A stretch of DNA of 64,000 nucleotides from Protoeuglena noctilucae (Eukaryota): assembly GCA_958009085.1 (NCBI GenBank), contig OY253684.1, positions 186,001-250,000 of the forward strand, given 5' to 3'. The notes beneath the pieces are model-generated. The model did no database searches. It was not told the DNA's origin and saw only the letters and a program-made list of their open reading frames with translations. Each line of letters begins with the position of its first letter. Position 1 is the stretch's first letter. The translations under genes and the position numbers were made by a program. Positions 1-27,300 of the stretch are shown here, in pieces.

Positions 1-3000
1 ATGGCGGCGCGCGCGGGGCAGGCCGAGGCGCTGCGAGCCATGCTGCGGGGGGTGGCGGGTTCAGACGGACGTGACCCGCGGGAGGGTGAGCCGCGCGACG
101 GTGGGGGTCGGAGTGGCATGCTTGCGGAGCTGCCATTAGTCGAGGCTGGCGAGTGCCTGTTGTGGTGGTGTGACGGGATCAGGATGCGTTGTGCATTTCA
201 GTTCCCAAGTAACCCTGACCATCGCTGTCCGCGTCTGCCGCAGTTGCCGAGGCCCTCGAGCGCCGGAGCAAGCAGGCGGGGCTGTCCCCGCTGCACCGGG
301 CCGCTGAGGCGGGGAGCCAGCCCTGCTGCGAGGCCATCATGGCCGTCGCGCCCTCCCTCTTAAGCGCGCGGTGCAAGAAGGGCCGCACGGCGGGGGAGCT
401 GGCCCTGCGCAGGGGCTACGGCGCTTTGGCTGCAGTGCTGGGGCTGACCCACACTGCGCCACCCACCGCTGCTGCTGGCCAAGACGACGTGCGCGGTCGG
501 CCCACGCTACTGGTCGCGCCGCGCGCGTGCATGGAGCACCGCACCTTCCCGGAGGTGAGGCGCTGTTGCGGTGGATGGGGGTGGCATAGTACTGTTATAT
601 GGTTGGCGTTCCACCATGCGCGTACCCACGACTCTCACCACCATCCCCTGCCTTTCTCTCTACCTCAGCCATACGTGCGCGGTGCGTCAGATGTGCCCCC
701 TGAGAACGTCCATCGACTGAAGGTGCTCCTGCACCCCAGCACGGGCATCTTGCACGCCCAGGAGTTCGAGGGCCGCCTGGTTTGGGACATCGCATCGGGC
801 CCTGCGGCCATGGGAGACATTCTGCGGTGAGCGTGGATGAGTGTTCAGGAATAGTAACGGACTGTAATTCACCATTGCAACTTTACTATTTCACCACTAC
901 TGCTTCTCCTAAACCCTCACATCCCGCCTGCTTTCCTCACCCAGCGTGCACGACTGGCCTTACGTCCGGAGCCTCAAGCAGGCCTGCCAGGCCATTGAGG
1001 ACGTCCCCTCCGCCGTCTCTCACCTCGACGGGGACACCGCCATCTCCCGGCGCACCTTTGACGCTGCGCTCATGGCGGCGGGGGCCGTGGTGAGTGTGGG
1101 GTACCTAGGGGGCAGCCACTTCTTTCACGGATGGCTTTCTTCTTAGATCACGTGCTGCTGCAGAGGGACCCGCACTTGGTAGATCCCTAACCATGCAGGG
1201 TCATAACAGCCCGAGCGAGCCAGCCAAGAGTTGGGACTGAGAACCAGCTGCCACACGCACAGTTCACGCGACGCACGCACCCCTTTCCCCCTTACCACCC
1301 GCTCTGACCCTTCTTTCCCCTCTTCACCGCTTCTGCAGACGCACGCGATTGACCGGGTGATGCGGGGGGACGTGAAGAACGCCTTCTGTGCCATTCGCCC
1401 CCCGGGCCACCACGCGGGTCCTTCAGGAGTGGTCACCTCCCAACGCGACCCCAACGGCTCCCACGGCTTCTGCCTCCTGAACAACGTGGCCATCGGGGCC
1501 GCCTACGCGCTCAACGTCTACCGCCACGCGGGCATCCAGCGCGTCGCCATCCTCGGTGAGGCTAAGAGCAGACTAACAGCTTTGACGTGGACGTGTGCAA
1601 GTGGCGCATTGCACGCTGCACTCTCTTTGGCCGCTTGTGTTGTACACATCACTGCAACGGTGAACATCACTCCCTGCTCTCTTTTTCCACCCTTCCTGTG
1701 TACGGCATCCCACTCGCACAGATAAACGCCGTCCGTGTCGCCACCAGCCCACGTCATGCCGCCTCAACTCTCACCCCACTCACCCTCCCAATCCCCCCCC
1801 CCCCCCCACCAGACTTCGACGTGCACCACGGCAACGGCACGGAGGCGTGCGTGGACGCCGTGGTGCCTCGCACCGTGGTCCACCACTACAAGACGCCCTT
1901 CTCTGAGGGAGTCGAGAAGTTCTCCGTGTGGCGTCCCTGGCTGGACGAGGACGACTCGGACCGTGTCTTCTTCGCGTCGGTACAGGGATACGGCCCGAAG
2001 GCGCCCGGGGTGGCGGCGTTCGTGTACCCGGGGAGTGGGGCCACGTGCGACACGCGGGCGGGGGTCAAGGACGACGGCGGGGTGGACTTCATGGGGCAGA
2101 GGGTCGACGAGGACCCGGAGGTGAGAATGGGGGTGGGGGGTATCAGGAATGCAACAGGCACATAGTTCGGCAGCAACACCACAGCACCCCAGCATAGCAT
2201 GCGTGTGCCTCTGCCCTCTCATCCCTCCTCGCCCACCCCAACACCATCCGCCCATGCCTTTCCCTCTTCCTCACATCCCACCAACACCACCAGTACCACT
2301 CAAGACCTCTCCTCATCTCCGTCTCCCACAGAATGAGTTCGCGTACCACGGAGGCGAGGCCCCCCGGCCCGACGGCCCCCGGGTCATCAACGTGGGCATC
2401 GAGCACGCCACCCCGGACCCCGGCCTCTGGCGCCGCGCCTGGCGCGACAAGATCTTCCCGGCTTTGGTGAAGTTCCACCCCGACCTCATTCTGGTGTCGG
2501 CGGGATTCGATGCCCACCGCAAGGACGAGATCAACTTCGGGTACCTGGGGATCCTCGAGAAGGAGTTCGAGTGGATATCCGAACAGATTGTGCAGGCGAG
2601 TGCAGATGGGTCGGGAGTGCAGTGGCAGGCGGCACAATGGTTACGCGTGTGATGTCGTGTCATGTGTGTGTGCCATGTAGCCCCCTACAACCGGTGCCCT
2701 CACAACCGGTCCCTTCAGGTCGCCAATCGCTGCTGCGAGGGTCGCGTGGTGTCGTGCCTGGAGGGCGGCTACCGCATCCAGGGCGGGGTGGTGTCCGCGT
2801 TTGCGCGCTCGGTGGCCGCCCACGTGCACGCCCTCTGCGACACCCACGCCGCGAAGTGGGACCCGGCGGAGGCGCGATGGGAGCACGACAGGGAGAGGGC
2901 CAAGCTGCCGGTGAGTCGGCAGGGACTGGAGTTGGCAGGGACTGCAGCACAGCGCTTCTGTGGTTGTGTGCGCTAGGCGCCCCACCTTCCGCACCCCTCA

Positions 3001-3539
3001 CCCACTTCTCACCCACCCCTCGCGTCCACTCCACGCAGCGCCCGACATCCATGGCCTCCCCCACGCCCGGCATGGCCCGGGCCCACCCATCCGCCACGTC
3101 CCCAGCATCCCCCACGCCCCACACACCCCTTGACACCCACGCCCCCCCGGGGCACCTCGTGGGGGGCTCGCCCCACGCAGAGCTGGAGCCCATGGTCCTC
3201 GACCACCCGCCTCACATGGTGTCTGGCGCGGGCACCTCTGCTGCGCACGTGGATTTGGTCACCGTCAGGACGCCCGTCATGGGTGCGAGCGGGGCGGAGG
3301 TGCTGGGGGCTGCCTCGGATGGCCGGGCCAGTCTGTCGCAGGGTGGAGGGCATGTGAACGGGGGGCTGGGCACGGGGGCGAAGGCGGAGGGGGGTGCGAG
3401 TGGGGCGGGGGCGGGGGTGTGGGAGGAGGAGGGGGGCGGGGACCGTAAGCGGCGGCGGCGGGGCGCGGCGGTGGATTACAAGGCCTTGGACGCAAAGCTG
3501 AGGGCCGAGGAGGAGGAGGGGCGGGCGGGGGGCAAGTAG
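1..3539 (+). CDS. Zn-dependent histone deacetylase (class II-like) with N-terminal ankyrin-like repeats; multi-exon, probably 5'-truncated by the window edge
   Basis: Spliced exons give RPPGHHAG, GFCLLNNVAIGA, DFDVHHGNGT, SAGFDAH and LEGGY, the HDAC catalytic motifs. The N-terminal segments AARAGQAEALRAML and GRTAGELALRRGY resemble ankyrin repeats. The basic C-terminal RKRRRR precedes the stop at 3539. Confidence 0.9.
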
Positions 3540-3731
3540 TGGGGTGGGCATGCAGGGCTGTGGGTGTGCAAGACATGGTGGGCAAAGCGAGGTTGAGACT
3601 GGCTGAGGATGTGTGGTAGCATGGGTGCAGAGGGGTAGGTAGACAGGCAAGGCGTCTTTCCCTGACTGGCTAGTTGCTTTGCGCAGCGCTAGCTAGTTTT
3701 AACTCCACTCTCTAAGAATCACTTGCAAGCG

Positions 3732-4291
3732 TCACTCGAAGTTGAAGTGTTTCTCGAATGCGCTGACGACCTTCCACGTGCAGTCCATGCCCGCCGGGAA
3801 GACCACAAAGTCCCCCGCGCATATCACGGCCGGCGCCACCCCGTGCTTGGGGTCCGGCGTGACCACGGCGCTGCCCTGCAAACGCGAACCAGGCGACGCA
3901 GCTGCGTGCATCTCCAGTCATCTCTGGTCACAAGGGTTCTGTTGATCCCTCGTGATCCCATCGCACCTTTATGACGTAGCACATTTCCGTCTCGTCATAG
4001 TGCCAGGGGAACTCCGAGACCTTGCAGCTCCACGTCGGCCAGTTGCGGACCCCGACCATCGCCAGCATCTCAGGCTTCGGGTTGTTGTCGACCACGATCG
4101 CCCCAACATACCCGGGGGGCTTGTCTGCGCCAACAGGCCCGGAAACTGTGTCGCGAGCTCGCTTGCATCGCGTGTTCCTCACTTGTCCGGCTCCCCTCAC
4201 CTGCAGCCCGACATGAAACGGGGCGGGAGCGCGTGGCAAGTCGGCAGGACACGCGCGGCCGTGAAAGGAGCTGCGCACCGCTCAGCGCCAT
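3732..4291 (-). CDS. Small cupin (Cupin_3/DUF861-type) protein with transit-peptide-like N-terminus; spliced
   Basis: MALSGAQLLSRPRVSCRLA..., then GVRNWPTWSCKVSEFPWHYDETEMCYVI, then AGDFVVFPAGMDCTWKV...EKHFNFE*, matching the Cupin_3 pattern. Confidence 0.85.
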
Positions 4292-4569
4292 CCCCTCTTT
4301 TCCGATGCCCATCTCAACGCCGCGGGCAGGAACTACGAGAAACTTGCACATCAACAGTGATCCCAGTGACGCGAAATCAACGGGTTTTCATGACGATTCA
4401 CGGATTAAATGGCGGCGTCACTGTCAGGTGGAAGTGTGCCTCCAAACAACCGCTCGCTGCGATCACTGCCAGGTGTGTTTGCACCTGCGCATCGCGTGAC
4501 AGTGACTAGGCCTTGGATAGGCTTGCATCGAGCGTGTCGGCCCGTTAGATGCGGCGAGCCCCTGAGACC

Positions 4570-6203
4570 ATGACCGGGCACGCGGAAGCTATCGCAGTTG
4601 CTTTGGCTCCCAGCGGTGAGGCGCACACGCCGAGCGTGTGTCTGTGTGAGGGGCGGAGCAAGGCCCGCTTGGTTACATGCGGGATTTCGCGATTCTGATC
4701 TTCCAGATGTCCAGCTGCGCATTTCGGACGTGCCCGCCGACGTATTGGAGCTAATCCTCGACCTGCTACCCCGGCGGGATGCCTGCGTGGCGCGGGCCGT
4801 CAGCAGGGAGTGGCGCGCGAGGGTGGACGCGGTGTGGAGGGACTGGGAGCGCCCGAACGAGTGGCCGACGCGGGCGGACGAGCACCTGGCGAAGAAGGGC
4901 ATGGCGTGGCCGTGCGTGTGTGCGGCGGAGATGGCCGGGCAGCCCCTGTCCCCTCGGGTGCTGCGGATGCTGGTGGAAGCGATGCCAGACGAGAATCTTC
5001 CCGGGGCTTTGGCGGCCGTGGTGGGCGCGGCGGGCGGAGAGGGAGAAAGGGATCGGATGCTGCAGGAAGGGACGTGGAGTCGGGGGACGGCACTGCACGC
5101 GGCAGCGTCGCAGGGCAAGGGTGGCGCGGTGGCGGCGCTGGTTGCGTTGGGGACCCCGGTCGGCGCAGGCGTCGGGGGCGGGGCACGAGAGCGTGGTGCT
5201 AGTGCTGCTTGCGGCCAAGGCGGACGTGACGGCATCGCTCTTGGCGGGGGAGACGCCGCTGCACTGCGCGGCGGGTGGGGGGCACGTGGCGGTGATCCAC
5301 GCCCTGGTGGCCCACGGCGCTGACGTGGCGGTGGAAGACGAAAGGAGACGAACGGCGCTTTGCAAGGCGGCGCGGAAGGGGTTTGCGGGAGCGGTGGAGG
5401 CACTGCTGGGCTACGGTGCGGCGGTATCAGGCACGGATTCCCTGGGCGCGTCTCCGCTGCACAATGCCGCAATCGGTGGCAACGTGGGCATCGTTGTCGC
5501 GCTACTGCTGCGGCATGGAGCAAACGTGGCCGTCACGGACGGGCGCGGCCGCACGGCCATGCATGCCGCGCTGGTAAGTAAGGGTACGGGGTTGCCCAGG
5601 ACGACGAAGCGGGATGGGGACGCCGAGGCCATCGTGGCGCTGCTGTTGGAGCATGGGACGGACCCGGGCGCGACAGATGTGCAGGGAAGGACGGCTGTGC
5701 ACGTCGCGGCCAGTGAGAGGAAAGTGGGGGCCCTCCATCGGCTGCTGCTCGACAAGCGGGGGGGTGCGCTGGTGAATCAGCGGGACAGGAGGGGCCTGAC
5801 GGCATTGCACCTGGCAATGTGGTCGAGGTCCAGTTCGGCTGTGGGCCTATTGCTGGACGCGGGGGCAGACCCGGAGGCCGCTTGTGTGAGGGGCTGGCGT
5901 CCTGTTCACATCGCAAGCCGTCTGGGGTCCGAGGAGCCATTGGCGCTGATACTGCAGCGGGGTGCAGATGTGATGGCGGTGGACGAGAAAGGGTCGTTGC
6001 CTCTCCACCATGCTGCGGAGTACAACCGGGCGAACCTGGTAGGCGTGCTGGTGGGTCATGTGGCGGGCCTGGAGGCCAGGGACGCGGAGGGGAGGACGCC
6101 CCTCATCCTCGCAACGCGCTTCGGGAGGGCGGACAGCGCGAGGAAGGCACTGATCGAGGCGGGGGCGGACGAGGGCGCCGTGGATGCGTGGAGGAGGGGG
6201 TGA
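4570..6203 (+). CDS. F-box plus ankyrin-repeat protein with an apparent frameshift near 5160-5170 (possible pseudogene or assembly error)
   Basis: The F-box-like segment ISDVPADVLELILDLLPRRDACVARAVSREWR and the first ankyrin repeat lie in one frame. The following TPLH/TALH ankyrin repeats lie in another frame, running to the stop at 6203. A short first exon starts at ATG 4570 (donor gtgagg, acceptor ttccag). Confidence 0.8.
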
Positions 6204-6888: not shown

Positions 6889-8766
6889 ATGACTGCGCAG
6901 GGCTGTGGAATCGCCCCTTGCTCGCTGGTCGCGTGCCCGCGGCAACGTGCGTCCGCATTGGGTCCACGCCAGGTGCGGCTGCTGGGCGGGCTGGCCCATC
7001 TCAGCCATGAAAGGACGAAACTGACGCCATGTAGGCGCAGCAGCTCACGCTGATGGCGTGAAAGTCCCGCATTTGGCCGCGTGCGCTGCAGCCCTCGTCC
7101 GCTCCTGACCCCTTCGCGCGAACCCGCTGACCCTCGGCGCGAGGCCTGGCATGATCCGACAGACTTACATGCTCAGTATCGCGGCACCTGCAGGGCAACG
7201 TGGCCGTTGCGGCCACGTACGAGGGCGGGAACAAGCGGAGGTCGCCGCCGCGCGATGCCCCCGCGGGCAGGCCGAACCTTCCAAAGGCGAGCGACAAGCC
7301 CGCCGCTCTCGGCTTGTAATGCGCTGTAGTATGCTGCCAAGACCCACGGACCTCGCCCCGCCCCGCAGAGCGGATACTTCGCCCCCGCGGACCCCAACGC
7401 TCCTGTGATTGCCTATCGGCCGCGCGGCGCCGGCAGAGATCCTCTCAAGAAGGGCGGCCGTTTCGACGAGGAATTCATATGGAACACGGACTGGAAGTCG
7501 GCGATGGAGTACGAGGAGGACGTGCGCCGGCAAATCCAAGAGGCGCAGGTGCCGGCAGCGGGCGTGGGCCCAGCCGGTGCACCTCTGTGCCCGCAGCGAC
7601 CCTTGCACATGCGACTTCTTGGTCGTCGCCAGCTTCAGGGGCTTTTCACATCCACGCCTGCTACCCACCCTCACACCCCCGCTCTCGTCTCTCCCACTCC
7701 CACGTCGCTCGCTCCCCACCCATCCCCAGGAGCGGCGCGAGCAGGGCTCCCCCGGGGCCCCCACGGGCACCAAGGGCTTCGTTTCCCTGGGTTCTCTCGC
7801 TTCCTTAGACGACGTCAGCGTCGACCTGTCGGACCAACTGCGCCCTCGCAACGTCGAGGCTTCGTCGGCCCCGGTTGCGCCCCCGGCGAAGGCGCCGCCC
7901 TCGCCCGCGCGGCCCCCCGAGGCCCGCCGGCCGGGGGTGTACGCGCGCCTGCCGCCGAGCAAAGGGGAGGCGCGGCGGTGGGACCGATCCCGGGCCGCGG
8001 CGGGGCGCCCGGTGGTGGCGGCGGGGCCTGCCACCGAGGAGGAGATGACGGAAGAGCAGAGGGCGAAGCGGGAGAGGAACGCCAAGCGGTGAGAATGCTT
8101 AGATGTCCTATGTGGTACGCATCCCTGTGCACATCATCTCTGTGCATGGGTTGGATGACACCATTGCTAGCTCCCTCGCCCGCCTTTGGTGAGGTGGTCG
8201 GTGCAAGCGCCGCCACCGCCCCGGTGCGCTTCGCAGGTACGAGGAGCTCAAAGTGCAGACGCAGCTGTGGACGGTGGCCATCGCGGGCGTCTCGTTCCTG
8301 GCCACCCGCTCCTTTTACCCCACTGACGTTTCGACGTCGTACCTGGTGGGGGCCATCGGGGGGCTCATCTACCTACGATCCCTCTCCAGGTGACTGCCAG
8401 AGCAGTGATACTTTGCATACGCACGCGTGGCAGAGGCTAGGCGAGGCGCACAACCCTGCATTCACCTGCCACCGCTTGCGTCACAGGAGCGTGGATGCGC
8501 TGGGCGGGGGGGGGCAGGGCGCGGCAGCCGCCGCCAACCCGCGGCTGCTCATCCCCGTGATTCTGGTCCTGGGTGCCAACCGGTGGAATGAGCTCAAGGG
8601 GGATGAGTTTGGGGTCCATTTGGCCATCCTGCCTGAGCTGCTGGGCTTCTTCACTTACAAGGCAGCCGTCGTGGGGCTGCAGTTCACGGCGCTGATGCGC
8701 GAGTTCATCGGGAGGGACTTCCAGGGCCAGAAGGCGAGGCAGGGCGCGGCTGGATGTTATATGTGA
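6889..8766 (+). CDS. CGL160: CGL160-like chloroplast ATP synthase assembly factor (Atp1/UncI-like C-terminal domain)
   Basis: Transit-like exon MTAQGCGIAPCSLVACPRQ, then FDEEFIWNTDWK, then C-terminal NPRLLIPVILVLGANRWN...LLGFFTYKAAV, matching CGL160 motifs. Confidence 0.8.
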
Positions 8767-9284: not shown

Positions 9285-12200
9285 TCAGCGCTCGCCTTCC
9301 AGCCTCGGAAATCTGCAAGCAAGGGCCTCCAATGTAACGTCCATGCAATTACCGACTAGCCGCACACACGCAATGTCGCCACTGCAGTCACGGCACCCCC
9401 ACCCGGCAGGCACTGCATTTGCCGCACACAACTTGCTCCCGACAACACCCCAGCGCACCTGACCCCGGCCTCTCGATGGATTGCCGCGATGGCGCCACCG
9501 CACCCCCTCGGATGGTGACGATTTCGTGGCTTTGCGTGCCATGAGTGCCGCGCCCAGTCATCCCTGGTGCTTCAGGGATCGCCAGGCCGATCTCCGAATG
9601 CTCCGCCGCCAGAGATACGGACGCCTGGGATGGGATGGGCCACGGTCATGTCGCATGGTCAGCACCAGCATGGTCGGCGTCCGCGACTGACGGTGCAGCA
9701 CACGGCACGTTGTGAGCGCGACACAGCAACACAGCGCAATGGCGCACACCTGTGATCCCTCAGCGTGGAGCCCCGCATCCACCGCCCCGATGCCGAACGC
9801 AAAGGGCGGGGCGGGGGCCATCCCGACAGACTCTGCCACGTGCGCAAAGCTGAACCCTCCCGCCGCGTCCCCTCCACGATGGCCCTCCCGGCCAGACACC
9901 GACGTCCCGTGAGCCGTGTGGCTGGCTCCGGCAGGCGCACCTGCACGCATCGGGCGTTGGCACGAGGGTGAAGTGCTCAGCCACCCCCCCATGTGCCTTG
10001 CCGCCTGCGCATGCCACGACGCTCACCGCCCCCGCCTCCCTCGGCCCCGTGCGCGCCCCCCGGCTGCGCCGAGCTCGGCTGGGCGAAGCGGGGCTCTGGG
10101 TCCGCGACGTCCTGCGTCCCTGCGACCATGTGGGCGCGCTCCACGCGGCGACGGAAGGAGGTGCCCCCGGGGATGGTCGCAAAGTGGTCCTGCGGATGGG
10201 GTTGGGGTGAGGAAGAAGCGGTGATGGGGAGGTGCATGTGGGCAAGACTGGCGATGAGGTGCGATGGACAGGACTGAAGGGCAGGTAGGTATGCGCTGGA
10301 CTAGCGGGAAAGCAACCCAAGGGTGCGATGGCGGGAGTAAGAGACCCGTCCGCTGCCCCATGGCCCACTCCGAGTGCCCAGCCCAGCCCATTCGCCTGCA
10401 TCCTCGTCCACTCCGAATGCCCCAGCCCCGTGTCCCCGAAGTCGCTGGGCTCTGCCCCCGGGAGCGGCCGCACACGGTCGCGCATCGCCTTCCGCACCGC
10501 CACCGGCAGAGGGCGCTCCGGGAAGGCCCCGTCGTCCGGCTCCCGCGTCGGGGACCCCACGCGGACGACGGACAGCGCCGAGGCAGCCCCCGCTGCCGGG
10601 TTCAGCTCTGCCGCAGCCGAGGCCGGGCGGCCCTCAGTGCCGGCCAACGCGCCCCTCTGCGGAGTGCGAGGGGTTGCAAAAGAGCTTAACCACTCCAAGG
10701 GCAGTGGTGCAGATTGCCTGATCTGTAACGCGCGTGTCCTGTTCATCCCAAAGCACACAGAGCCGATGAGCCAGTGCATGCACGCGGCCTCCGCCCTGCC
10801 GCTCTCCACGTCCCTCACCTCCCTGGCCTCCTCCAGGGACACCACGGCCGTCATGGGCAGCGGATCGCGGCGTCCCCGGTACTTGGAGATGTTCTTGGTC
10901 CCGCCAGGCCCGACCTGCCCCCGCACGTCGTCCTGCCAACCCCGGATGCCCGACACGCGACGCCCCACCTCGGCGCGCATCTCCTCCCGGACCGCAGCGA
11001 CCAGGCGCTGGCGCTCGGAGGCCGCGCCCCGCGCCGCCGCGCCCCGCACCGCCGCCGTGGCGCCCAGGAAGGACCGCACCTTGGCCAGGCTCTGGGCCGT
11101 CGCCGCCCGCTCCGACGCAGTGCGCGCGGCCACCGCCGCCCTCGCCTGCGCGTCGAGGGAAGCAAACCATGACGAGCGACCACGAGCTGGTGACACGCAA
11201 GCTCGCTTGAAGAATCCGTGCTTCCTTGCACACGCCGTTGCTGTTCGCGCTACCCCATGTCTACTCACCTCTGCTGCCTCCTGCGCCGCTTCGGCTTTGT
11301 CGATGCGCCTCGTGAAGGCCACCAAGGTCCGCGCGAACGCCCCCGAGTAAGCCCGGCCCACGCGCCGCTCTTTCGCCACCTCCCGCCGCTCCTTGCTCAC
11401 CGTCGCACGCTCCTGCGCAGCTGCTAGCCGCTGCGTCGCCCCCTCCTCTGCATTCGTTAACAAACACACGGACTCAGTTGTGAAGCAAGGCACACGCGCC
11501 CCAACGAGGCGGGCATTAGCGTCACTATGCCACCAGCTATGCTTCCTGCATCAGGCATTGCACCGTCGTTCTCCCCATCAATCAAGCACCACGCACCTCT
11601 CTTGGCGTCCGCCACCACCCGCGCGTCCCGCCCCGACGCGCCCGCCTCTGCCGCCGCCATTGCCCGCAGCTCCGCCACGTTGCGCATCTGGGCCGCGTGC
11701 TCCTCTCTCTCCCGCTCCACCAGCGGCCGGCACGAGGCCGCGTGCGCCGCCCTCGCCTCCCTCGCCCGGGCGTTGGCCTCTGCCGTCAACTCAACCTGCT
11801 CCCCCGCCGCAGAGTACTTGAGATAGTCCACGTCCAGCGTTCGCGCCGGTAGCGGCTCCCGCTCCCGCACGTCCTGCGCCCTGCGCTGCCGCTCCGCCAG
11901 CGCCTCCACCAGCTGGTTGGTCCGCGACTCCTCCCACTCCCGCTTGAGCGTGCGCACCATGTCGGCCACCGCGCTCCGGATCCCAAGCATCGTCATCCGC
12001 GTGGTCGCCTCGCGGCTCGCGGATGCCCCCAGATGCGCCAGGCCGGACGACACCGCCGGCACCTCCGAGACCGCACCCGACCCCTCGCCCCCTCCACCAC
12101 CCTCTACCCCCTCGCCCTCCTCATCCCCGCCGTCCTCATAGATCACCGGCGGAGGCGCCGTGGCCCGCTCGCTCACGTGGCTGAAGATCGACACCCCGGA

Positions 12201-15825: not shown

Positions 15826-17326
15826 ATGGCGCAACAACCGGTGGAGGCCATGCTTGGCCATTCGCTGGATGACATCATCAAGATGAGCGAAGGTGGGCCG
15901 CTCGCGATACCGATGGACGAGTGGGCGTCAGAAGGCGAAGGGCTAGCTGTCCGCGCCCACTTCCGGGGTCGGAAGGGGCGTCCCTGCCTCGTCTTCATGC
16001 GAGACCTTGGAGCATTCGCGCGCAGACAAGCAAGGGCGCCACAGGTCGAGGCATGGAGGTTCGGGGCCACGAGGAGGGGAGCGACGGGAGGTTCACGAGC
16101 GAGGGGAGGGGCGGGGCAGGCCAGGAGGGCGGCATCGGGGAGGCGGGGGCCGCGGGGGGCGTGGGCGTGGCGGCGGCCGGGGGTGAGCCCGCGAGATGCC
16201 TTTCTCGGGCGATCTGCTCACAGATGGACGCGACGACGTCTCTGACGGAGCATCTCCCGTTCGCCATCTGCAGAGACTGGGCCCAGGGCCAGGGGGGTGG
16301 GATGCCCGCGTATGGCCATGGGGGCGGGATGTATGCAGGGGATGGGATGGGTGCAGGAGGGTGGCAGCAGCCCTACGGTGGGGCGGGACCTGCGCAAGGG
16401 TGGCACGGAGGACAATGGAACCCGGGAATGGGCGGGGCGCTTGGTCTGGACCCCATGCAGATGCAGCGCATGGAGACGAGCATGCAAAATGCGCTTGTCC
16501 GCTTCGACAGGAGCGGCCTCTCGCGTAAACCCGAGGAGCGAAAGGCGGCAAAGTGAGGGCGTGCGCCTGCAGCTCACTCATCGACCCCGGCCGCCGCTCC
16601 TGCGCTTGCGTGGACAGCTTCGTGGCTGCATGATATCGCTGATGTGTCTGGCTGCGCGTGTGGGGCTGTCGGGAGGGATGCTCGGCCGCGTGACGACACC
16701 AGCGTAGCAATAACTGAGGAATGTGCGGCTCCTCGCAGGCGCCTCCGATGTGAGGAGGTGGTGAGTGCCGAGGGCAACAAGACGGGGGAGTTCCGGGTCA
16801 CGTATTCGTCCTCTGGCTTCAAGGAGGACGACGTAATTTTGCTGGCCGCGATTGGGCCGACGGGGGACATGCGCCTGCAGACGGGGGGAGACAGGTCGCC
16901 GGAGATGCTGGCAGGTGAGGCTGGAACCCATTTTAACGATGCCCACACGTGCCTTGCAGGAGCGCTACGGCCCTCGCTAGCCACTCAACCCGGCACGCCC
17001 CTGGTGCTCCCGCAGCCCTGGGCGTGATTCTGCAGCCGACGGGAGCCAAGATTTCCCAGACGGGGACCGGCCCGTGGATGCTGACGGTCGGCAAGACGAT
17101 GCGGCAGTTTGCGGACGGCATGGTGGTGCCCCCGACGGCCCAGTCGGGGAGGCTGCGTGGCAAGGCGGTGATGCAGGCGATCACGAACCCGCTCGTCGCC
17201 GCGGCGTCGGCTGCGTCCCTCGCCGCGGCGGAGCAGGAGGGGGTGTCGACCAAGGTCGGGGGCCCGTCGCCACTGTCCGGGGAGAAGCGGCGCTTGGCGG
17301 CCCAGGGGCGCTACGCCCCTTACTGA
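15826..17326 (+). CDS. Hypothetical nuclear/RNA-associated protein (SLDDII motif, RGG-rich region, C-terminal PY-NLS-like end)
   Basis: MAQQPVEAMLGHSLDDIIKM, a Gly/Arg-rich exon, a GM/GW-rich low-complexity exon, and the ending KRRLAAQGRYAPY*. Confidence 0.65.
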
Positions 17327-17767
17327 GCGAACAGGGCTGCCGGCGGCGTGGCAAGGTTGGCGTCGCATGGGCCTCGGGCGGGGTTGCCGGCAAGCATAGG
17401 AGCGGAGGGGGGCACCCGGGGCAGTCAGTGTGCCTGTCAATGAGAGGGTTTCTTTGTGATGGTCTTTCAAACGGTTATTCCAAGTAGGAGGTCTTGAGCT
17501 ATGCGCGGCTCGGGAGAGATGCGAGGGGGGCACCCAGATGCATGCGGTGCCTAGACTAGTGGGAAAGGGGGTCGTAGCTGCAACAAGCGAACCCGAGATG
17601 CACAGGCTCATCGCCGGGCTTCCAGCACGAGCACTTTGGGTGAATCTACATGCCACCTGACGCTGAAGATGCACGGTGCACGACATGTGCGCCGAGGTCT
17701 GCCGTGGGAGCACATGGGCCGCTGCCCTGCGTCAGGCCTGACGAGCAGTGGCCGAGGCTGGCGCCGC

Positions 17768-20700
17768 TCAGAGCATCTCGTGGAAGGTGCGGGCGATGAC
17801 CTCCTCCTGCTGGGCGCGCGTGAGCTTGTTGAAGTGCACGGCGTAGCCACTGACGCGGATCGTGAGGTGGGGGTGCTTCTGCGTGGCGGTGGGAAAGGGG
17901 CACAGGTAAGGCACGCACGCGACGACGTTTAGTACATGCAAACCACGTTACATCACAACATCGGGGCACTGGGTCCGGTAAGCCACAACACCCCAACATG
18001 CAAGGGGCAAGCGGGCAAGCCACAACACCCGCTTGGCCCTTGGAGTCGGAGTCACTCACCTCGGGGTGGTTCATGGCGTCGACGAGCGTGGCCCTGTCGA
18101 AGACGTTGATGTTGATGTGGTGGCCGCCCTTGGCGAAGTAGCCGTCGAGGAGGCCGGTGAGGACCTGCTCCCGCGACCGGGGGTCCTTGCCCAGAGCCCC
18201 GGGGACGATGGAGAAGGTGTACGAGATGCCGTCCATGCAGTGCTCGTAAGGAATCTGCGGGGAGCGACAGGAACAGAGGGAGCGTGAGGGAGCCACACCC
18301 CATCTGACTGGCATGACCGCTTCTGCAGTGCGGCGCTTGGCCGCTATCGCGAGAGGGCATGCCGCCCTATGCCCCACCGGCCCGCTCGCCTGCGCGACCG
18401 AGTTCATGGACGCCACGGCGCCGCGCTCGTCACGGCCGTGGACGGGGTTGGCGCCCGGGGCGAAGGGCTCGCCCTTCTTGCGGCCGTCGGGGGTGTTGCC
18501 CGTCTTCTTGCCGTAGACGACGTTGGAGGTGATGGTGAGGACGGAGAGCGTCGGGATGGCGTTGCGGTACGTGTGCTGCGCCTGGAGCTTGCGGTGGAAG
18601 CGCGTGACGAGGTCCTGGGCAATGCCATCGACGCGGGGGTCGTCGTTGCCGTACTTGGGGAAGTCCCCCTCGATGCGGAAGTCGGTGACGAGGCCGCGGC
18701 TGTCCTTCACGGGGTACACCTTGGCGTACTTGATGGCCGAGAGCGAGTCGGTGACCGTCGACAGCCCCGCGACGCCCATGGCCAGGAAGCGCCTTACGTC
18801 CGAGTCGTGGAGCGCCATCTGGATCTTCTCGTAGTTGTACTTGTCGTGGCTCCAGTGGATGGCGTTCATGGTGTTGACGTACAGCTGCGCCAGCCAGTCC
18901 ATGGCCTTGTCGTAGTGCGCCATCACGGTGTCGTACTCGAGCGGGCGGCTCGTGTCGGCGCACAGGTCGGGCCACACGGGGGCGATCTGCTCCCCCAGGA
19001 CCTCGTCCTTGCCCCGGTTGAGCAGGTACAGGAGGAGCTTGGGCAGGTTGCACCGCGCCCCGAAGAACTGCATGTCCTTACCGATGCGCATGGCCGACAC
19101 GCAGCAGGCGATGCCGTAGTCGCAGCCGAACTCGGGGCCCATGGACATGTCGGACAGGTACTGGATGGCGCACGTCTTGATCGACATGCGCGAGCAGAAG
19201 TCCTTGAAGTCCCTGGGTGGGTGGAGACGGGCATAGGCCTCGTCGACGGTTGGCATGCGAGCACCGGCCGTGCCAGGGAGGGTGCGGAGAGCGCAGAGCG
19301 AGTGTCATCGCAAAGCGCTCGCTCACCGGGGCAGGTCGTTGTGCCAGAGGACGGACATGTTGGGCTCCGGGGCGGGGCCGAGGTTGCTGAGCGTGTGGAG
19401 GATGCGGAAGGACGTCTTGGTGACCATGTGCCCGTTGGGGCCCGTGCCGCCGATTGAGCACGTGACCCTGCAGGAGAGACAAGAGAAGGGGCGCTGTCAG
19501 TGTCCTCGTGCTGAGGAGGGTGGTGAGCGGGTGTCGGCTTGGGGCACGGAGGCCGTGCCGACTCGGGTGATGAAAGCGGGGACCTCCCCTTCCCCCGCGT
19601 GGGGTAGTCACCAGGTGGGGTCGCCGCTGAAGAGGTCGTTGTACTCGGGCGTGCGCAGGTGCTTGACCAGGCGCAGCTTGACGATGAACTGGTCGATCAG
19701 CTCCTGCGCCCCGGCCTCGTCCAGGCGGCCCTCCTTGAGGTCCTTCTCGATGAACGTGTCCAGGAAAGCATCCACGCGGCCTGCGATCCAAGACGACAAG
19801 ACGTCGCACCACCTGCCTTGGTGCGGGATGCCTCGCGCCGCAAACGCAAGTGTGAGCCTGTCGCTACCCCACTCCTCATCCATTCCCCTTCTCACCCAGC
19901 GCCACAAGTGTGCGGGCCAATTGCTACCCAGCTCCTCGCCCGTACCCCCCTCCTCACCCAGGGACATGGCGGCGCCGTCCTGCTCCTTGACCGCAGCCAG
20001 GTAAGCGAAGTAAAGCCACTGCACGGCCTCGCGGGCGTTGGTCGCGGGCTTGCTGATGTCGTAGCCGTACGACTTGGCCATGTCCTTGAGCTCGTTCAGG
20101 GCCTTGATCTGCTCCGAGATCTCCTCCCTGCAGTCACGGTGCATGTCTTGCCAATGAGCGTCCCAAGAGTTTCTAAGGAAACCGTGGTGCTGGCGTGAAG
20201 GACACATGTCATGCCATGCCTCCGCACGCCACGGCCCACACATACGGCGGAGTGTCTGGGGCCCTGTCATGTCACGACTGCCGCACGCCGCTCACCGCAG
20301 GCGCATGATTGGCTCGGTCATGACGGGCCCCAGCGACTGCTTGTCCGCCTCCTTGGCCTTGATGAGCTCGTCCACGCCGTACAGCGCCACGCGGCGGTAG
20401 TCGCCGATGATGCGCCCGCGGCCGTACGCGTCGGGCAGGCCAGTGAGGATGGCCGACTTGCGCGCCGCGCGCATCTCGGGGGTGTAGACGTCGAAAACCC
20501 CCTCGTTGTGCGTCTTGCGATACCGCGTGAAGATCTCCCGCACCTTGGGGTCCACCGTGCGGTCGAAGGCCTCCAGCGCCGCCTCCACCATGCGCCACCC
20601 GCCCTTGGGCTTCATCGAACGCTTCAGGGGGGCGTCCGTCTGCAGGCCCACGATGAGCTCCAGGTCCTTGTTGATGAACCCGGGCTTGAAGCTGTTGATC

Positions 20701-21321
20701 TCCGACGGCGTGACGGTGTCCACGTCCAGCAGACCCCCAGGCGACTTCATCTCCCGGACGATCCTGCGCGTGTGGGGCACCCGTTCAAGACCTCATGCAT
20801 TAAGAACCCAGCGGCTGCGTGTGGATGTGTTACGCGTTCGACTAACTCACAGGTCGTTCATGAGGTCGCGGAGCTTCTCCGTGCGGGCGGTGGGGCTGGC
20901 AAGGAAGGAAGCATCCCCCCCGTACGGCGTGATGTGCTCCTGGACAAAGCGCTCGACGTCAATGTGTGCGCTGCCGTTAAAGTCGAACTGCGGGCGCATG
21001 TGGGTGCGCGGCTGCTCTCTCTCTGCCGCCGCGGAGCAGGTCCGGGACCGGGGCACAGCGGTGAGCTGTCCATGGGCTCACCTGCGCGGCCGGCGCGCTC
21101 TGAGCGATGTGCCTCTTGCCGAGCTTGGACTGAGACCCCGAAACGAGTCCGGAGCTCGCGTGCGTCGAGAACGGGACGCGCTGCGCGCCGGGGCGCGGCT
21201 GGGCCAGGGCCCCCAGCTGGGACAGGGTGGGCCGGGCGAGCAACGCCACGCGGAGCTCCTGGGGTTCCAGCAGCGCCGCGCACCGGGCCAGAAGCCCGGC
21301 AGCGGCCTTGGTGCGCTGCAT
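17768..21321 (-). CDS. PFL1: Pyruvate formate-lyase (formate C-acetyltransferase, glycyl radical enzyme) with N-terminal organellar targeting-like peptide
   Basis: [35 protein letters not shown], active-site [27 protein letters not shown], and glycyl-radical loop [11 protein letters not shown] near the C-terminus. Confidence 0.97.
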
Positions 21322-22020
21322 GACCTGCGGCGATCGACTCGCGGGGCCCGATGAGCGCGAGCGCTACCAATCGTCTCGACAGCGCCAAAGCCTTCACGGT
21401 TCGATGCCCCGAACGACCGCAAGGATGGCGTCGAGACAAAGTCTTCAATGCCCGCCAGGGAGCAGGATTGGTGCCGCCACGGCAAAGAACTCGGGACTTA
21501 AAGGTGGCACAAACCGCGGGTCAAACGCGCGCCAACAGCGGCCGGATGAAGCGCCATTGCCTTATCACGGCCATGAACGGGCGAGGATATGCGCGAGGCA
21601 TGCATCAAGGGATCGCGGGGAGCGCGCGCGAGGCCGGACCAGCCTCCTCGACCCCGAGCAGCCGTTGCGGCCGTCACCTGCAGATCTCTGCCCGATCGCC
21701 GCTTCAACGAGTCTTTTATTTACAAGAAGAGTCGGCGCAACGACTTCTGAGTGGCGAGCGACGCTGGGTTGGCGGAGATTGGACGTCAAAGAGCTTTAGC
21801 TGTCACCCCGGGTTCTGACCCCGCAGCGTCGCCGAGGGCAACGATTAAGCAGGGCGACAATGTATCCAGCAATGTAACTAGAATTGAGAGACTCCCACGC
21901 TCGTTTCCTGCTCTCTAATCCTCGTTTGGCTCTTCCTTGTACCTTTTCTCCCCACCCGCCACTCGCCATCGCCTTTGCGTTGCGAGATAGCCTTTGCTCT
22001 ACTCCCTTCGTTCCTAGGGG
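21322..22020. promoter_or_regulatory. Putative bidirectional promoter / 5'UTR region between PFL and PFL-AE
   Basis: About 700 nt between divergent ATGs, lower GC than the flanking exons, with a CT-rich leader at about 21900-22020. Confidence 0.55.
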
Positions 22021-23820
22021 ATGGCGCTCGCGCGGGTGGGGGCTCAGAGCGCCGCGGCCCTTGCCAGTGGGGGCACGAGCGCCCTCTGCTGCCTCCCCGC
22101 GCTGCGGGCCGTCGAATCCAACCCAGCCCTTTTCGAGAGGATTAGACGGGCGTGGGGCGACGAAGGTCCCGGGCCCCTGCAATCGAGCCCCGCGGCCTCG
22201 CCATCTCGATGGGCGTTGAGGTGGCGTGGGGCCCGGGGCTTCGTGTCCGTCGCCGAGCCGAGGCGGGATGGGGACGGCGAGGGGGGAGGCAGCGGGTGCG
22301 CTGCGCTCCAGCGTTTCTGAATGACAACGCCGGGGGATGCGCTGGCTGTGGCTCGGCACGCTCTACGCCAATGGACAGTTAGGGCCCCCGGCCTTGCAGG
22401 GACGAGGTGAAGCGGGCGCCGGTGACGATCAACGAGAACGATTTCTTTGAGCCCAAGGGCTTCTCATCGAAGATTCGGGCCGACCTTGCGCGCCAATCCG
22501 AGATGCTGGGGACCACGTGTGCGCTGGTGAGCGTGGGGCATGCGGAGGTGTGTGTGCGACACGGTCGCTGATGGTCGCCCGCGGGACTTGCGATGCCCGT
22601 GTGAGTTTTACGATCCCCGCTTTTCACGAAACGCGTGGTGTGCTGCAGAAGGCGCCGGACCCGCCGAAGGAGCCGACCGTGGAGGAGCTGCACAAGATGT
22701 TCTTGAAGGTTGCGGACGCGACCAGCGCGTACGACTTCGTCTGGTCCAGGAAGGGTGCGTTGGGAGCGCCGGGTGGCTCGTCTCTCCCCGCACCAGTGAT
22801 GGCAACGATGCCGTGCGCTCCTCCTGTCTCCAGTGCTTGCCAGCGCCGCGGGTGCGCACGCCATCGACGTCGACGCCTCTGGAGTCCCCGAGGTCGAGGG
22901 CTTCGTGCACAGCATCGAGTCGCTGTCGGCCGTGGACGGCCCGGGGCTTCGCTACGTCCTCTTCACCCAAGGCTGCGCCTTCCGGTGTATGTTCTGCTGC
23001 AACCCCGACTCGTGGGAGTTCGGGGCTGGCACGCGGGTGCGTGGCCCACGCTGTGCGCGATGTTCCTGTGCCCATGACGGGCCCTTGTGCTGGGCAGCCC
23101 ACAACGCCGGCGCATGCTCTGCGGCGCAGATGACGTCGAAGGATGTCGCAAGGCAGATCGCCAGAGCCGTCCCTTACATCAAGTTCGGGGGGGGCGGGGT
23201 GACGCTGTCCGGGGGGGACCCAATGCTGCAGCCTGACTTCGTCTCTGCTGTCTTCCAGGAGTGTCATGCCATGGGCCTGCCAACGGCCATCGACACCACG
23301 GGCATGGTGAGTGACGTCTCTTCCTTCCTCCGCGCTCGTGAGCACGCTCCTGGCGGGCAAGGGGCCTTCTCGCTCGCCTGCGCAGGGCAGCCGCGGGCAC
23401 TGGCGGAAGGTGCTGCCCAACACGGACCTCGTCATGCTCTGCGTCAAGGCCCCGAAGCCGGAGACGTACACCAAGATCACGGGGGGCTTCAAGCAGGACG
23501 TCATGCTCCGGTTCGCCGCCGTGGCCGCCCAGATGTCCGTGCCGATGTGGAAACGGTACGTCCTGGTCCCCGGCATGACGGACAGCGACTTCGACGTCCG
23601 CTGGCTCGCCCAGTTCTGTAAGGACCACAAGAACGTGGAGCAGATCGACGTGCTGCCCTACCACACGCTCGGGGTGCACAAGCGGGCTGCCATGGGCCTG
23701 GACTACCCCCTCCAGGGCCAGCGGAGCCCGACGCGGGACGAGGTGCTGCGGTTCAAGGGTCAGCTCGAGGCGTACATTAAGGAACTGGGCGTCAGCGTCA
23801 TTGCCACGGGCATCGCTTGA
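22021..23820 (+). CDS. PFLA: Pyruvate formate-lyase activating enzyme (radical SAM) with long N-terminal extension
   Basis: [39 protein letters not shown] (CxxxCxxC), [26 protein letters not shown] and VLPYHTLG. Confidence 0.96.
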
Positions 23821-24309
23821 TTGAATCCTGCGGTGCCAACGCTGAGCTCCGCTCGACTTCAGCTGCACTCGCCGTTTCAGGTTTGACCCAGGGTATCCCG
23901 AGAAAAGTGTCTTTGAAAGACGGCGAGCCGTCACCTCGCAGCGAAAGACATTTTGCTTGTTTGTGCCGCGGCAGCGTCGTGGTGGCCATGCCTGTGGACG
24001 GCGAGGAGTAGAGGATAGACGCATGAGGGGCCCCGTGATGGCATGTAGGGACACGATGTGTAATGACTGCAGCGCTTTGACGGCCGGGCGGCCGTGTCGT
24101 CGCGCCCAAGCGTGAAGGCGAGCCAGAGCGGGCTCAGTTGGGGTCGCCGCGCGCACGGATGCCAACGAGGACGTCTCCCATTGCTATTTATGCCGCAAAG
24201 ATGCTAGTGAAACTTGCCTGCCTAATCTTTGACCCCGCGGCGTCCCGAGACCCGACCCCCGCCGCTCCGCAACCACAGGGAAGGGTTTGACCGAGCTGGC
24301 GAAGGGAAG

Positions 24310-27300
24310 ATGGGTCGCGTCATGGCCTTGGCTGCGGCCCTCCTGCTCCTCGCGAGCGTGGGGGCCGTGCCGGGGGGTGCCACCGTTTTGGACGTCTCTG
24401 CCGTCTTCGGTGAGGGCCGGCTGGAGCACGTGCGGGGCACGGATGACGGTAGGATCTCGTGAGCGCCAACGGGCCCCCCGTCGCCGGGGACCACCGCCCG
24501 ACGGCTTTCCCTCGTGCAAACCTGCCCCGGCCCGTCCACGCAGACGACATCTCGCAGTGGCCGGGATGGAACGCCGTGGCGCTGACGAATGTCCAGTCAC
24601 CGATGGATCCCGCGTCGGTCCCGCGGAGCTTCGCCTTCTCCAGCGCCACGCCCGACTTCCTCGAGGTGTGCACGCTTGCCCCCCGCGTGAGCCGCGGTCC
24701 TCCGCCGCCCCGCAATTGCGGTCTTCGTCTCCTTATCCGCGTCTCGGACCCGTGCGAACGCTCCTGCCCCGCAGTTCAAGCTGTTTGTGACCGTGCAAGG
24801 CATTCAGCAGGACCTCCTGTGGGATGCGGTGTGGTGGAGCGCGAGCCAGGTGGCAGAGTGGGAGGCGCTGATGCGCGAGTCGCAGACGCCACTGATGCCC
24901 GGGGGGACGGCGAGCCCGGCGCCGGGCGCCACGTCCCCTCCTCGTCGACGCCTCGAGGTGCGCCCCCCCACCGATGAGCGCCAGCGCTGTTGCTGATGTG
25001 CGTCTCTCATCCCATCCGCGCAAGCGAATGCCTTGTTTGTCATGTCGCAGGCTGCCGCCCCGACGGCCACCCCCGGGGGAACGGCTGCGCCCCAGACGCC
25101 CCTCGCGACGCCGACGCCGACACCATTGCCGACTCCCAGCCCCACCCCGAGCCTCGTCGACCAGTGCCTGGCGGAGTGGGCGGCGTACCAGTGGGCCCCT
25201 CCCCCGCCCTCGAGCCTGTCGTGCGTCCCCGCCGACGCCGTCACGCGGGCCCTCTTCGGCACCGCCCCTCTCTCCTTGGAGGCATCTAACGTCCTCTCGG
25301 ACGTCCTCGCGTCCTCCGCGGCCGTGCGCGCCATGCCGCAGTGCACCACGACCTGGGACGCCTGCGGCCTGCCCGTCACGACCCCCGACACCGCCTGCGT
25401 CAAGACGGTCGTGTTTGAGGCCAAGCGATGGGTGGCCGAGGCGCTGCAGTGAGCGCGGGGGTCGACTAGCTGTGAGGAGGCGCTCGCACAGGTTCGGGGC
25501 ATCACACGAGCATCGGCCCGTCCCCTCGCCCGCAGAAATCTGGAGGTGTCCGGCAAGTGGTGGAACGCTGACCCCAAAACGGGAGACGCGGTGACCTTCT
25601 CGTGCACCGGGGAAGGCCTCTTCGCCGGCGTGGCCTTCCTGGTCGGATGGAGGTACCAGGACCCTGTGCGCATCGCGGGCGTTTCCAACAACGGCGTGCC
25701 CCTTGGCGTGGCAGACGCCGCCCCGGGCGCCACCCCGACGCCGACGGCCACGCCTGCGCAGTGTGCCGCTGGCAGCGGGACGGCATCGCCCGCGGCTGGC
25801 ACGGCGCCGTCGCCTGCGCCCGGGGCGGCCCCCACAGGCAGCCCGGGCCCCGCGTCGCCATCGCCGGCCAGCCCGGCGCCGACGGGCACCTCGACGCCCG
25901 GGAGTGGAGCGTGCCTCGCGTCTGCGCCCCCGGAAGTGGACCTGGTCGCGGGGGTGAGTGGGTGGGGCAGGGACGCACGCACCTATCTGGGAGCTGCTGG
26001 AGCGCAGAGGGGGACAGAGCAGTGCCGCTCCTACCTCGTCACAGGCTTCGGGGAGCGTGACGCTGACGGTGGGCCTCTCGCAGCCCGTCAGCGCGGGCAT
26101 GCAAGTGTGGTGCGTGGCGGATGAGGACATGGGCGTCATCGGGGACAGTTTCTGGGCGTACGGTGCGTGTGTCCGCTGCACATCGAACGCCGCCCGCCGC
26201 TGCCCGGGGCCGCGTGCTCGTCTAATCATGACATTCATCGCCGCCTCGCAGACGGGTGTGCGTTGGAGTGGGCGCTGTCCGACATCCCCGCGCCAATCCT
26301 GGCGCAACTGCGGGCCCAGGAGCAGAGCCTGTCCGCCTGCTACGCCGCCATCAGCAGCCCGACGCCGGGGCCCTCGGCAGGACCCACCAGCGCCACCCCC
26401 CAGGGACCCGCGTCCGCCCCAACGCCGACCTTCGCGCCCAAACCGACAAGTCAAGCATCAAATCGCAAGCTCTTCGCCGGCGGCGCGGGGGCCACCCCGA
26501 CCCCGACGACCGCGGCGGGCCCTACCCCGGCCTCGACGCCGCAGACCGACCCCTGGCAACTCTGCTGGGAGGCGTACGGTGAGCGAGGCAGTGTTGCTGA
26601 CCATACAGGCGCAGCAGCAGCAAGTCGACGATGGGCGCTGTCAACGCCTCGGCAGGCAGACAAGGCGCTTGACGTTCCTGCTCGCAGGGTGCCATATGCT
26701 GCACTAGCAAGTGGCCCGGGGGGTCACGGGCGACGCGCAGGTGTCTGGCATCGTGCCGACCGTGTGCGGCGCGGGCGTCCCCTGCTCCGCCGGCAGCCCC
26801 CCGGTCCCCACCACGAGCGCCGCGGCGCAGGCGCCGGGGCCCACCCCCTCCGCACCGGCGCCGACGGCTGCCGGAGTGTCTGGGCGTGGCACTCCCGGGG
26901 CAGCGCTGCCGAGCGACGCGTCGGCGCAGGTTAGAGAGACGGGCGGCGGCATATGCGGGTGGCAGTGGTTTGCTTGCTTTATGGGACTGCAGCGACGCCC
27001 TGCCACAGCCCCGCTCGCAGAAGGGCGCGGCATCGCCGGGTCCCTCCACGCCAGCCCCTCCCCCGCCCCAGTACACGTCCCTCTCCATCTCCTTTGGCAA
27101 GAAGGGCGACTACGTGCAGCCGGGCAACGTCTACTGCGTTGGAGCGGGCGGCAAGATGGCCTACGACTGGCTCTACTCCACCACCACCGACGCGGGGGAG
27201 TACTTCCCCACCAGGTGCGCGACACGCGGCGCTTCTTCAGCGATTGCCTCTTTAAGGTGACAACATGCATGTCATGAATCTCCATGTTCGAGCCCCACCC

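Follow-up and report, generated by a model that had tools for sequence, protein, structure and literature searches.

In a 64,000-nt stretch of Protoeuglena noctilucae DNA (GenBank assembly GCA_958009085.1, contig OY253684.1, positions 186,001 to 250,000; referred to here as the window), the gene for pyruvate formate-lyase (PFL) and the gene for its activating enzyme (PFLA) are direct neighbours on opposite strands. Eukaryotic PFL and PFLA are a textbook example of laterally acquired anaerobic metabolism, and for the algal proteins the targeting and the firmicute-like origin are established. The question raised by this locus is why the two genes stand head to head: as the relic of a transferred bacterial pair, as a unit kept for joint expression, or as history without function. 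Both genes were found to be complete, spliced and expressed, their catalytic motifs are kept, and the 5' ends of their mRNAs lie back to back. We read the locus as an ordinary, predicted functional nuclear pair of a marine green-lineage alga, in which PFL and PFLA diverge from a common interval of no more than 170 nt that no transcript covers, and a probability of about 0.7 was assigned to this reading.

Structure and identity of the two genes

The RNA evidence was taken from X1 and X2, two runs of one marine metatranscriptome sample, and both genes are spliced and expressed in these marine metatranscriptomes. A further source, X3, was left out as transcription evidence because its contigs cover intron-exon borders and it therefore contains unspliced RNA or DNA.

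The PFL gene on the minus strand encodes 817 aa in ten exons, and each of its nine introns was confirmed by RNA. Eight introns lie in the coding sequence and one in the 5' untranslated region (5'UTR); their joints were read in X1 and X2 RNA contigs that agree with the window at 100% identity. The joined exons gave an unbroken frame of 817 codons from the ATG at 21321-21319 to the stop at 17770-17768. Exon 1 (21678-21721) is non-coding and without ATG; it corresponds to the first 44 letters of an X1 RNA contig and may extend beyond them. It is followed by the 353-nt 5'UTR intron (21325-21677; CAG/GTGACG ... AG/GTCATG), the joint of which was found in a 3903-nt X1 contig with a short side of 44 nt, and the acceptor of which lies three bases before the ATG. 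Exon 2 (21082-21324; RNA joints 20987/21082 and 21324/21678) carries the start codon and then an 80-codon presequence-like leader.

The eight core exons, all bounded by RNA joints, were each assigned to TIGR01255 (formate C-acetyltransferase) as the top NCBIfam family, and together they tile profile positions 12-744. The conserved core begins (IDVERF...) in the exon at 20850-20987 (profile positions 12-50) and continues through 20295-20762 (59-205), 19957-20126 (206-261), 19611-19779 (263-318) and 19326-19466 (319-365). The largest coding exon (18390-19211) holds the Cys-Cys motif IACCVS at about 19095-19112 and alone scored 389.5 bits (368-637). The first part of the Gly_radical domain lies at 18060-18254 (639-708), and the last coding exon (17768-17878; 709-744; RNA joint 17878/18060) contains RVSGY at about 17843-17857 and the stop codon, below which (17768) the 3'UTR extends. 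Eight of the nine introns have GT..AG borders; the exception is the GC..AG intron at 18255-18389 (GCGAGC...CAG; plus-strand ends CT..GC), the joint of which (18254/18390) was seen in both X1 and X2.

The domain content agreed with this assignment. Pfam matches on the open frames within 17646-20792 of the minus strand were PFL-like (PF02901; E 1.5e-75, 1.9e-41 and 5.6e-41 on three frames) and Gly_radical (PF01228; E 9.4e-20), in the order that marks a PFL, with the glycine-radical domain at the C-terminus. In the spliced protein, IACCVS occupies residues 476-481 and RVSGY residues 789-793; the E. coli reference sites are C418/C419 for the active-site cysteines and G734 for the glycyl radical (PMC12338860). 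The per-exon TIGR01255 scores amount to about 943 bits as a simple sum of exons scanned singly, whereas the equivalog cut-off of 994.2 bits, which divides PFL from other glycyl-radical enzymes, applies to whole proteins. The full-length relative P0002, 74% identical to the window PFL, reached 1062.6 bits. Other glycyl-radical families scored far lower.

The PFLA gene on the plus strand encodes 440 aa in six exons. As established for E. coli PflA/PflB and for Chlamydomonas PFL1 and PFL-AE, the enzyme uses a [4Fe-4S] cluster and S-adenosylmethionine (SAM) to abstract hydrogen from the RVSGY glycine of PFL (PMC8003979, PMC3660698). Exons 2 to 6 were fixed by P0121, a 346-aa protein from a 1230-nt JGI contig, which is 100% identical to the window and maps onto 22407-22526, 22649-22754, 22834-23036, 23130-23306 and 23386-23817 with GT..AG borders. 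For the intron at 23307-23385, X1 and X2 contain an RNA joint as well. P0121 scored 269 bits on TIGR02493 over profile positions 2-233 of 235, above the equivalog cut-off of 231.75, and the next-ranking NCBIfam families stayed under their cut-offs. It also aligned from end to end with two structures of E. coli PflA (8fo0, E 9e-57; 3c8f, E 8e-55), and in this PDB alignment the CX3CX2C motif CAFRCMFC (residues 217-224) coincides with that of E. coli PflA.

Among the PFLA exons, exon 2 (22400-22526) encodes an N-terminal extension ending in TCAL and matches P0121 residues 1-40 exactly, and exon 3 (22649-22754) continues the extension with a sequence conserved in the relatives P0122-P0124. The radical-SAM core begins in exon 4 (22834-23036), where CAFRCMFC lies at about 22974-22997 and the Pfam domains Fer4_12 (PF13353) and Radical_SAM (PF04055) were matched. 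Exon 5 (23130-23306) and exon 6 (23386-23887) follow, with the stop codon at 23818-23820 and a 3'UTR that reaches at least 23887 in an X1 contig. Exons 3 to 6 likewise match P0121 exactly. Exon 1 (21892-22295) consists of a CT-rich 5'UTR (21892-22020) and a putative 92-residue leader; RNA contigs cover 21892-22273 without a gap, and ATG 22021 is the first ATG in this covered part. Its start codon, its donor at 22296 and the acceptor before 22400 (TTGCAG) are predicted from frame and splice-site logic alone. GTGCGC at 22296 was taken as the donor because, of the GTs between 22273 and the in-frame stop, it alone brings exon 2 back into frame.

At the 3' end of the same gene, one X1 contig fits the last PFLA exon to about 23530 and then continues with 197 letters unlike the window. 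An alternative 3' end could explain this, as could a related gene or a chimeric contig.

The initial annotation had described an intron-containing PFL and an activase with these motifs, and the RNA contigs, P0121, the Pfam domains and the motifs confirmed that both are real. They also bear on the reading of the locus as an artefact, in which a bacterial contaminant or a mis-assembly would have joined the two genes. The pair contains 14 introns of spliceosomal type, 13 of them shown by RNA or a cDNA-like protein (12 GT..AG and one GC..AG) and one inferred, and the spliced RNA contigs are identical to the window throughout. GC content is uniform at about 66% (62-73% in 2-kb steps over the window), and the neighbouring frames are eukaryotic, with matches to histone deacetylase, F-box, ankyrin repeats, CGL160_C, UPF0029, protein kinase, Vps35 and DNAJC9. 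A DNA contig of X5 covers 16500-25000 without a difference; it may be the assembly's own source and is thus not independent evidence for the adjacency, and this is the one point that can be raised in favour of an artefact, for which no support was found. The 7-kb stretch is, moreover, fully present in four DNA runs of one study. The artefact reading was effectively refuted.

Intergenic geometry and N-terminal leaders

The start codons at 21321 (minus strand) and 22021 (plus strand) are separated by 699 nt (21322-22020), in agreement with the spacing of about 700 nt given by the initial annotation, in which 21322 as the PFL start was one base off. The genes diverge, their 5' ends are less than 1 kb apart, and no gene lies between them. 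The RNA contigs narrow the spacer considerably: PFL transcripts were followed up to 21721, and PFLA transcripts from 21892 in X1 (21892-22273) and from 21896 in X2 (21896-22121). The stretch without transcript cover is at most 170 nt long because the 5'UTR intron moves PFL exon 1 to 21678-21721. This unstranded interval, 21722-21891, is a candidate bidirectional core promoter, and the X1 depth in the bin 21612-21895 comes from the two flanking contigs alone.

The interval also has the lowest GC content nearby (47-62%), within a trough at 21700-21950. A tandem 12-mer, CAATGTATCCAG then CAATGTAACTAG, was found at 21858-21881 on the plus strand, 11 nt upstream of the first PFLA RNA base. Both of its matches in the window lie at this place, while 0.20 would be expected by chance, and two matches were reached in one of 100 shuffles. 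No upstream ATG was found in either 5'UTR when the sequence was read. The length of the gap suggests a compact bidirectional promoter. The short spacer would then act on both genes as one promoter, so that the enzyme and its obligatory activator would be made together.

The leaders of the two proteins were compared by composition. Residues 1-88 of PFL contain 19% A, 14% L, 10% S and 8% R with a net charge of +7, and residues 1-92 of PFLA contain 18.5% A, 15% G, 12% R and 11% S with a net charge of +3. Both have few acidic residues, and neither matched a Pfam or NCBIfam family. This composition fits organelle presequences and agrees with the Arg/Ala/Ser-rich, presequence-like N-termini that had been proposed from the DNA. 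The two leaders may direct PFL and PFLA to an organelle, which would be the plastid and/or the mitochondrion. Control of the pair by one oxygen-responsive promoter and delivery of both proteins to one organelle are reasonable guesses based on work in Chlamydomonas (PMC8003979, PMC3660698, PMC4722173).

Between the leader and the core, PFLA has a further segment of about 100 residues, and the whole extension before the core measures about 190 residues. Parts of this 100-residue segment, including EELHxxFLxxAxxTxxYDF, recur in the closest relatives (P0122-P0124). The extension gave no Pfam match, and its best Atlas feature search reached 0.76, under any useful level. In the AlphaFold model of P0121, residues 1-45 have a predicted confidence (pLDDT) under 50, and the extension forms no more than two helices (51-64 and 73-82), both weak.

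The nearest well-studied system is that of Chlamydomonas reinhardtii, in which PFL1 (Cre01.g044800) is reported to be targeted both to the plastid and to mitochondria and PFLA is predicted to be plastidial (PMC8003979, PMC3660698, PMC4722173). In both algae PFL is nuclear, contains introns, carries an N-terminal extension and has identical catalytic motifs, and the radical-SAM activase has an extension of targeting type; the largest PFL exon of the window is 67% identical to the Chlamydomonas protein. In contrast to the Chlamydomonas proteins, those of the window fall outside the Chlorophyceae clade, and the PFLA extension is longer, with a part that is conserved only in P0122-P0124.

The pair in other genomes and its possible history

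The initial annotation had left two explanations side by side, a relic of the transferred bacterial pair or a selected, co-regulated unit. The bacterial arrangement was surveyed in metagenome contigs with A2, an alignment of algal PFLAs, which gave 80 loci, only one of them (L068) clearly eukaryotic. A scan with P0121 alone gave 114 pattern matches, none of which was confirmed. PFL precedes PFLA on the same strand in 47 of the 80 loci (median gap 26 nt), and PFLA precedes PFL in 21 (median gap 120 nt). Two loci are convergent, one is divergent (L068), and nine have no PFL in the DNA fetched. The genes are therefore co-directional in 68 of the 71 loci that contain both.

Like the bacterial pflB-pflA operon of E. 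coli and Firmicutes, the window holds the same two proteins, with the same functional dependence, as immediate neighbours, and its PFLA aligns with E. coli PflA over the whole length. It differs in that its genes are on opposite strands, whereas 68 of the 80 loci have them on the same strand, and in that it yields two separate spliced mRNAs with introns and N-terminal leaders; same-strand co-transcription, which defines a pflBA-type operon, was not found. The linkage is not a plain relic, since the head-to-head layout differs from the bacterial one and the sole divergent locus of the survey is eukaryotic. Descent of the adjacency from a transferred operon would require that one gene has since been inverted. 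By our own estimate, two particular genes among about 10,000 would be adjacent by chance in about 2 of 10,000 cases.

The assignment of L068 to a eukaryote is based on its GC content of 0.68, on a 106-nt intron that interrupts the PFLA cluster motif, and on its Apyrase and SBF-like neighbours. Its PFL (2685-5162, minus strand) and PFLA (about 9653-10928, plus strand) are adjacent and divergent as in the window, and 55% and 45% identical to the window proteins, respectively. They are about 5 kb apart, in contrast to the minimal spacer of the window. Within this spacer, an ORF at 7248-7667 (plus strand) matches the Cas12f1-like TNB domain (PF07282, E 5e-8) and carries the motif IDEFRTSQMCHACG. 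PF07282 is the zinc-ribbon end of TnpB/Fanzor-type proteins, and the ORF is a TnpB/Fanzor-like remnant that probably accounts for part of the gap. Upstream of the PFLA core of L068, the frame at 9623-10222 (plus strand) contains the 18-residue leader segment MLSTTLPLLQSARPAERP twice as a direct repeat; it is a duplicated presequence start.

Phylogenies of both proteins were calculated, as the initial annotation had proposed. The nearest PFL relatives are JGI proteins, with P0002 73-74% identical over the entire protein, and named green algae reach 65-68% across the largest exon. For PFLA, the nearest named sequences are those of Pedinophyceae sp. YPF-701 (49%) and Chara braunii (45%), while Bacillales reach 40-47%; the named relatives sampled were Vitrella, Mastigamoeba, Pyramimonas, Amoebidium, Barthelona, Gonapodya and Polychytrium, with no Chlorophyceae. 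Bacterial and eukaryotic sequences stand on separate sides in both trees (97 in the PFLA tree; 100/100 in the careful PFL tree). The window proteins group with JGI sequences outside Chlorophyceae (98 in both quick trees; 100/100 in the careful tree). In the PFLA tree, L068 is sister to the clade of the window (SH-aLRT 92), and in the quick PFL tree the same grouping received 78. The phylogenies are compatible with joint inheritance of PFL and PFLA, in that they do not contradict it. The single-origin view of eukaryotic PFL and PFLA is reportedly that of Stairs et al. 2011 (cited in PMC12458973), and the split between the two sides is consistent with it.

One further PFL relative, P0001 (ENA, 903 aa), has an internal repeat of about 150 residues ending in GKYLDYDD and present twice, which is probably an assembly artefact.

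The layout is probably older than either lineage, because it is common to at least two eukaryotic lineages with sister PFLAs, and the adjacency would date at least to the common ancestor with the L068 lineage. It probably arose from a co-transferred bacterial pair in which one gene was then inverted. After the inversion both genes would have faced a common promoter region, and the arrangement may have been kept in compact genomes while the linkage was lost elsewhere. The adjacency would then persist through inertia and mild benefit and not as an indispensable unit. Co-transfer, inversion and subsequent retention or loss appear to be the most economical history.

Several observations weigh against the reading of the window as a functional pair with a shared promoter. 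In Pedinophyceae sp. YPF-701, PFL and PFLA each came from one contig, and the two contigs differ in length (623,303 versus 1,133,776); the same holds for Chara braunii (3,660,762 versus 243,089), and the genes are therefore unlinked in both. The comparison of eukaryotic genomic loci covered two loci. In L068 neither gene was lost at a spacing of about 5 kb, so a tight shared promoter is not required. The careful PFL tree placed L068 with another long branch and without resolution towards the clade of the window. The leader of PFLA is less certain than that of PFL because its exon 1 and start codon are inferred. RNA contig ends are minimum extents and cannot show transcription starts. Contig depths cannot rank genes, and the similar X1 and X2 depths of PFL and PFLA are therefore no evidence of co-regulation. 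The GTAC in the PFLA 5'UTR at about 21939, the sole motif looked at, by eye, is unremarkable.

Several of these observations fit a reading in which the adjacency is history without function, with independent core promoters and no selected co-regulation. Compact eukaryotic genomes commonly have neighbouring genes in divergent orientation. The separate contigs of the two green genomes and the 5 kb with a TnpB/Fanzor-like ORF in L068 point the same way, and they indicate that the linkage is dispensable. A similar picture may be given by L006, L007 and L018 (GC 0.64-0.69), three loci with related PFLAs that share the start TTGRVHSVE[ST]FTAVDGHGVRAIVFLQGC and have upstream frames that are long but show no clear start codon. 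The 0.7-10 kb available upstream of them and the 0.1-4 kb available downstream contained no PFL, and they may be eukaryotic and unlinked. Other points argue against this reading: two independent promoters would hardly fit into the 170 nt or less that lack transcript cover, the orientation is the same in a second lineage, and, by established biochemistry, the activase and PFL are each useless alone, so that joint expression is obviously beneficial. Taken together, history without function is possible but unlikely. The interpretation of the initial annotation was borne out in part: the gap proved tighter than the 699 nt between the start codons, but the layout is not bacterial, and its absence from two green genomes and the wider spacing in L068 do not mark a clearly selected unit. 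Likewise, the comparison of synteny and trees gave support from L068 in its divergent layout and in the PFLA tree, and less from the PFL trees.

The functional pair with a shared promoter was also weighed against a transferable cassette, namely a self-contained two-gene element with its own bidirectional promoter that moved between eukaryotes, possibly via giant viruses or transposons. Joint movement would explain a distribution that is patchy but joint. On the eukaryotic side of the trees, Mastigamoeba, fungi, Vitrella and algae are interleaved, unlike the organismal order, and a mobile-element ORF lies inside the L068 pair. Other linked forms exist as well, namely the divergent pair of L068 and P0407 (ENA, 1162 aa, from a 3817-nt contig), a single ORF with PFL-like, Gly_radical, Fer4_12 and Radical_SAM domains. 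The halves of P0407 are joined by a short Ala/Ser linker and the activase N-terminal extension, both group with the eukaryotes in the trees, and P0351 and P0297 are relatives of it. It resembles the window in the physical linkage of PFL and PFLA and differs in that the two are co-linear, in the PFL-PFLA order of most bacteria, and apparently fused; the ORF may be a true fusion, or it may arise by read-through of tandem genes. Against a cassette, no flanking repeats or mobile-element genes were seen around the window pair, although no search for them was made, and the introns and GC content match the host genome. The viral contigs gave six loci, none close to the window, with one full-length PFLA relative at 37% identity. 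The genes also persist apart in Pedinophyceae and Chara. A cassette of this kind was considered quite improbable.

A broader and speculative scheme joins these forms. In it, the head-to-head pair would be the eukaryotic replacement of the pflBA operon, made once by inversion after the transfer and inherited, or possibly passed on, as a cassette of about 6 kb; the unlinked genes, the transposon-split L068 and the fused P0407 would be later derivatives. We hold this scheme to be distinctly unlikely. The window pair, L068 and P0407 hint at a series of linked states.

Significance and surroundings of the locus

The transition from a transferred bacterial operon to two properly expressed nuclear genes is seldom visible, and the locus is a clean, RNA-supported example of one solution, with divergent genes around a minimal shared candidate promoter. 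In the full-text literature, with subscription papers outside the search, no paper was found on PFL/PFLA adjacency or a shared promoter in any eukaryote. The locus brings no new enzyme, pathway or mechanism; both enzymes were already known, and the gene arrangement, though neat, is of minor interest. Of practical use are a compact natural candidate for a bidirectional promoter in a marine alga (21322-22020) and a defined pair of leaders.

Two observations concern the surroundings of the pair. The frame at 7330-8763 (plus strand) matches CGL160_C (PF24763, E 1.7e-15), a family named for its conservation in the green lineage, which supports a Viridiplantae origin of the window. On the PFL side, the 3903-nt X1 contig continues from the PFL 3'UTR into a plus-strand gene with GT..AG introns at 16553-16738 and 16911-17011, and the 3' ends of the two convergent genes thus touch or overlap within 17012-17767.

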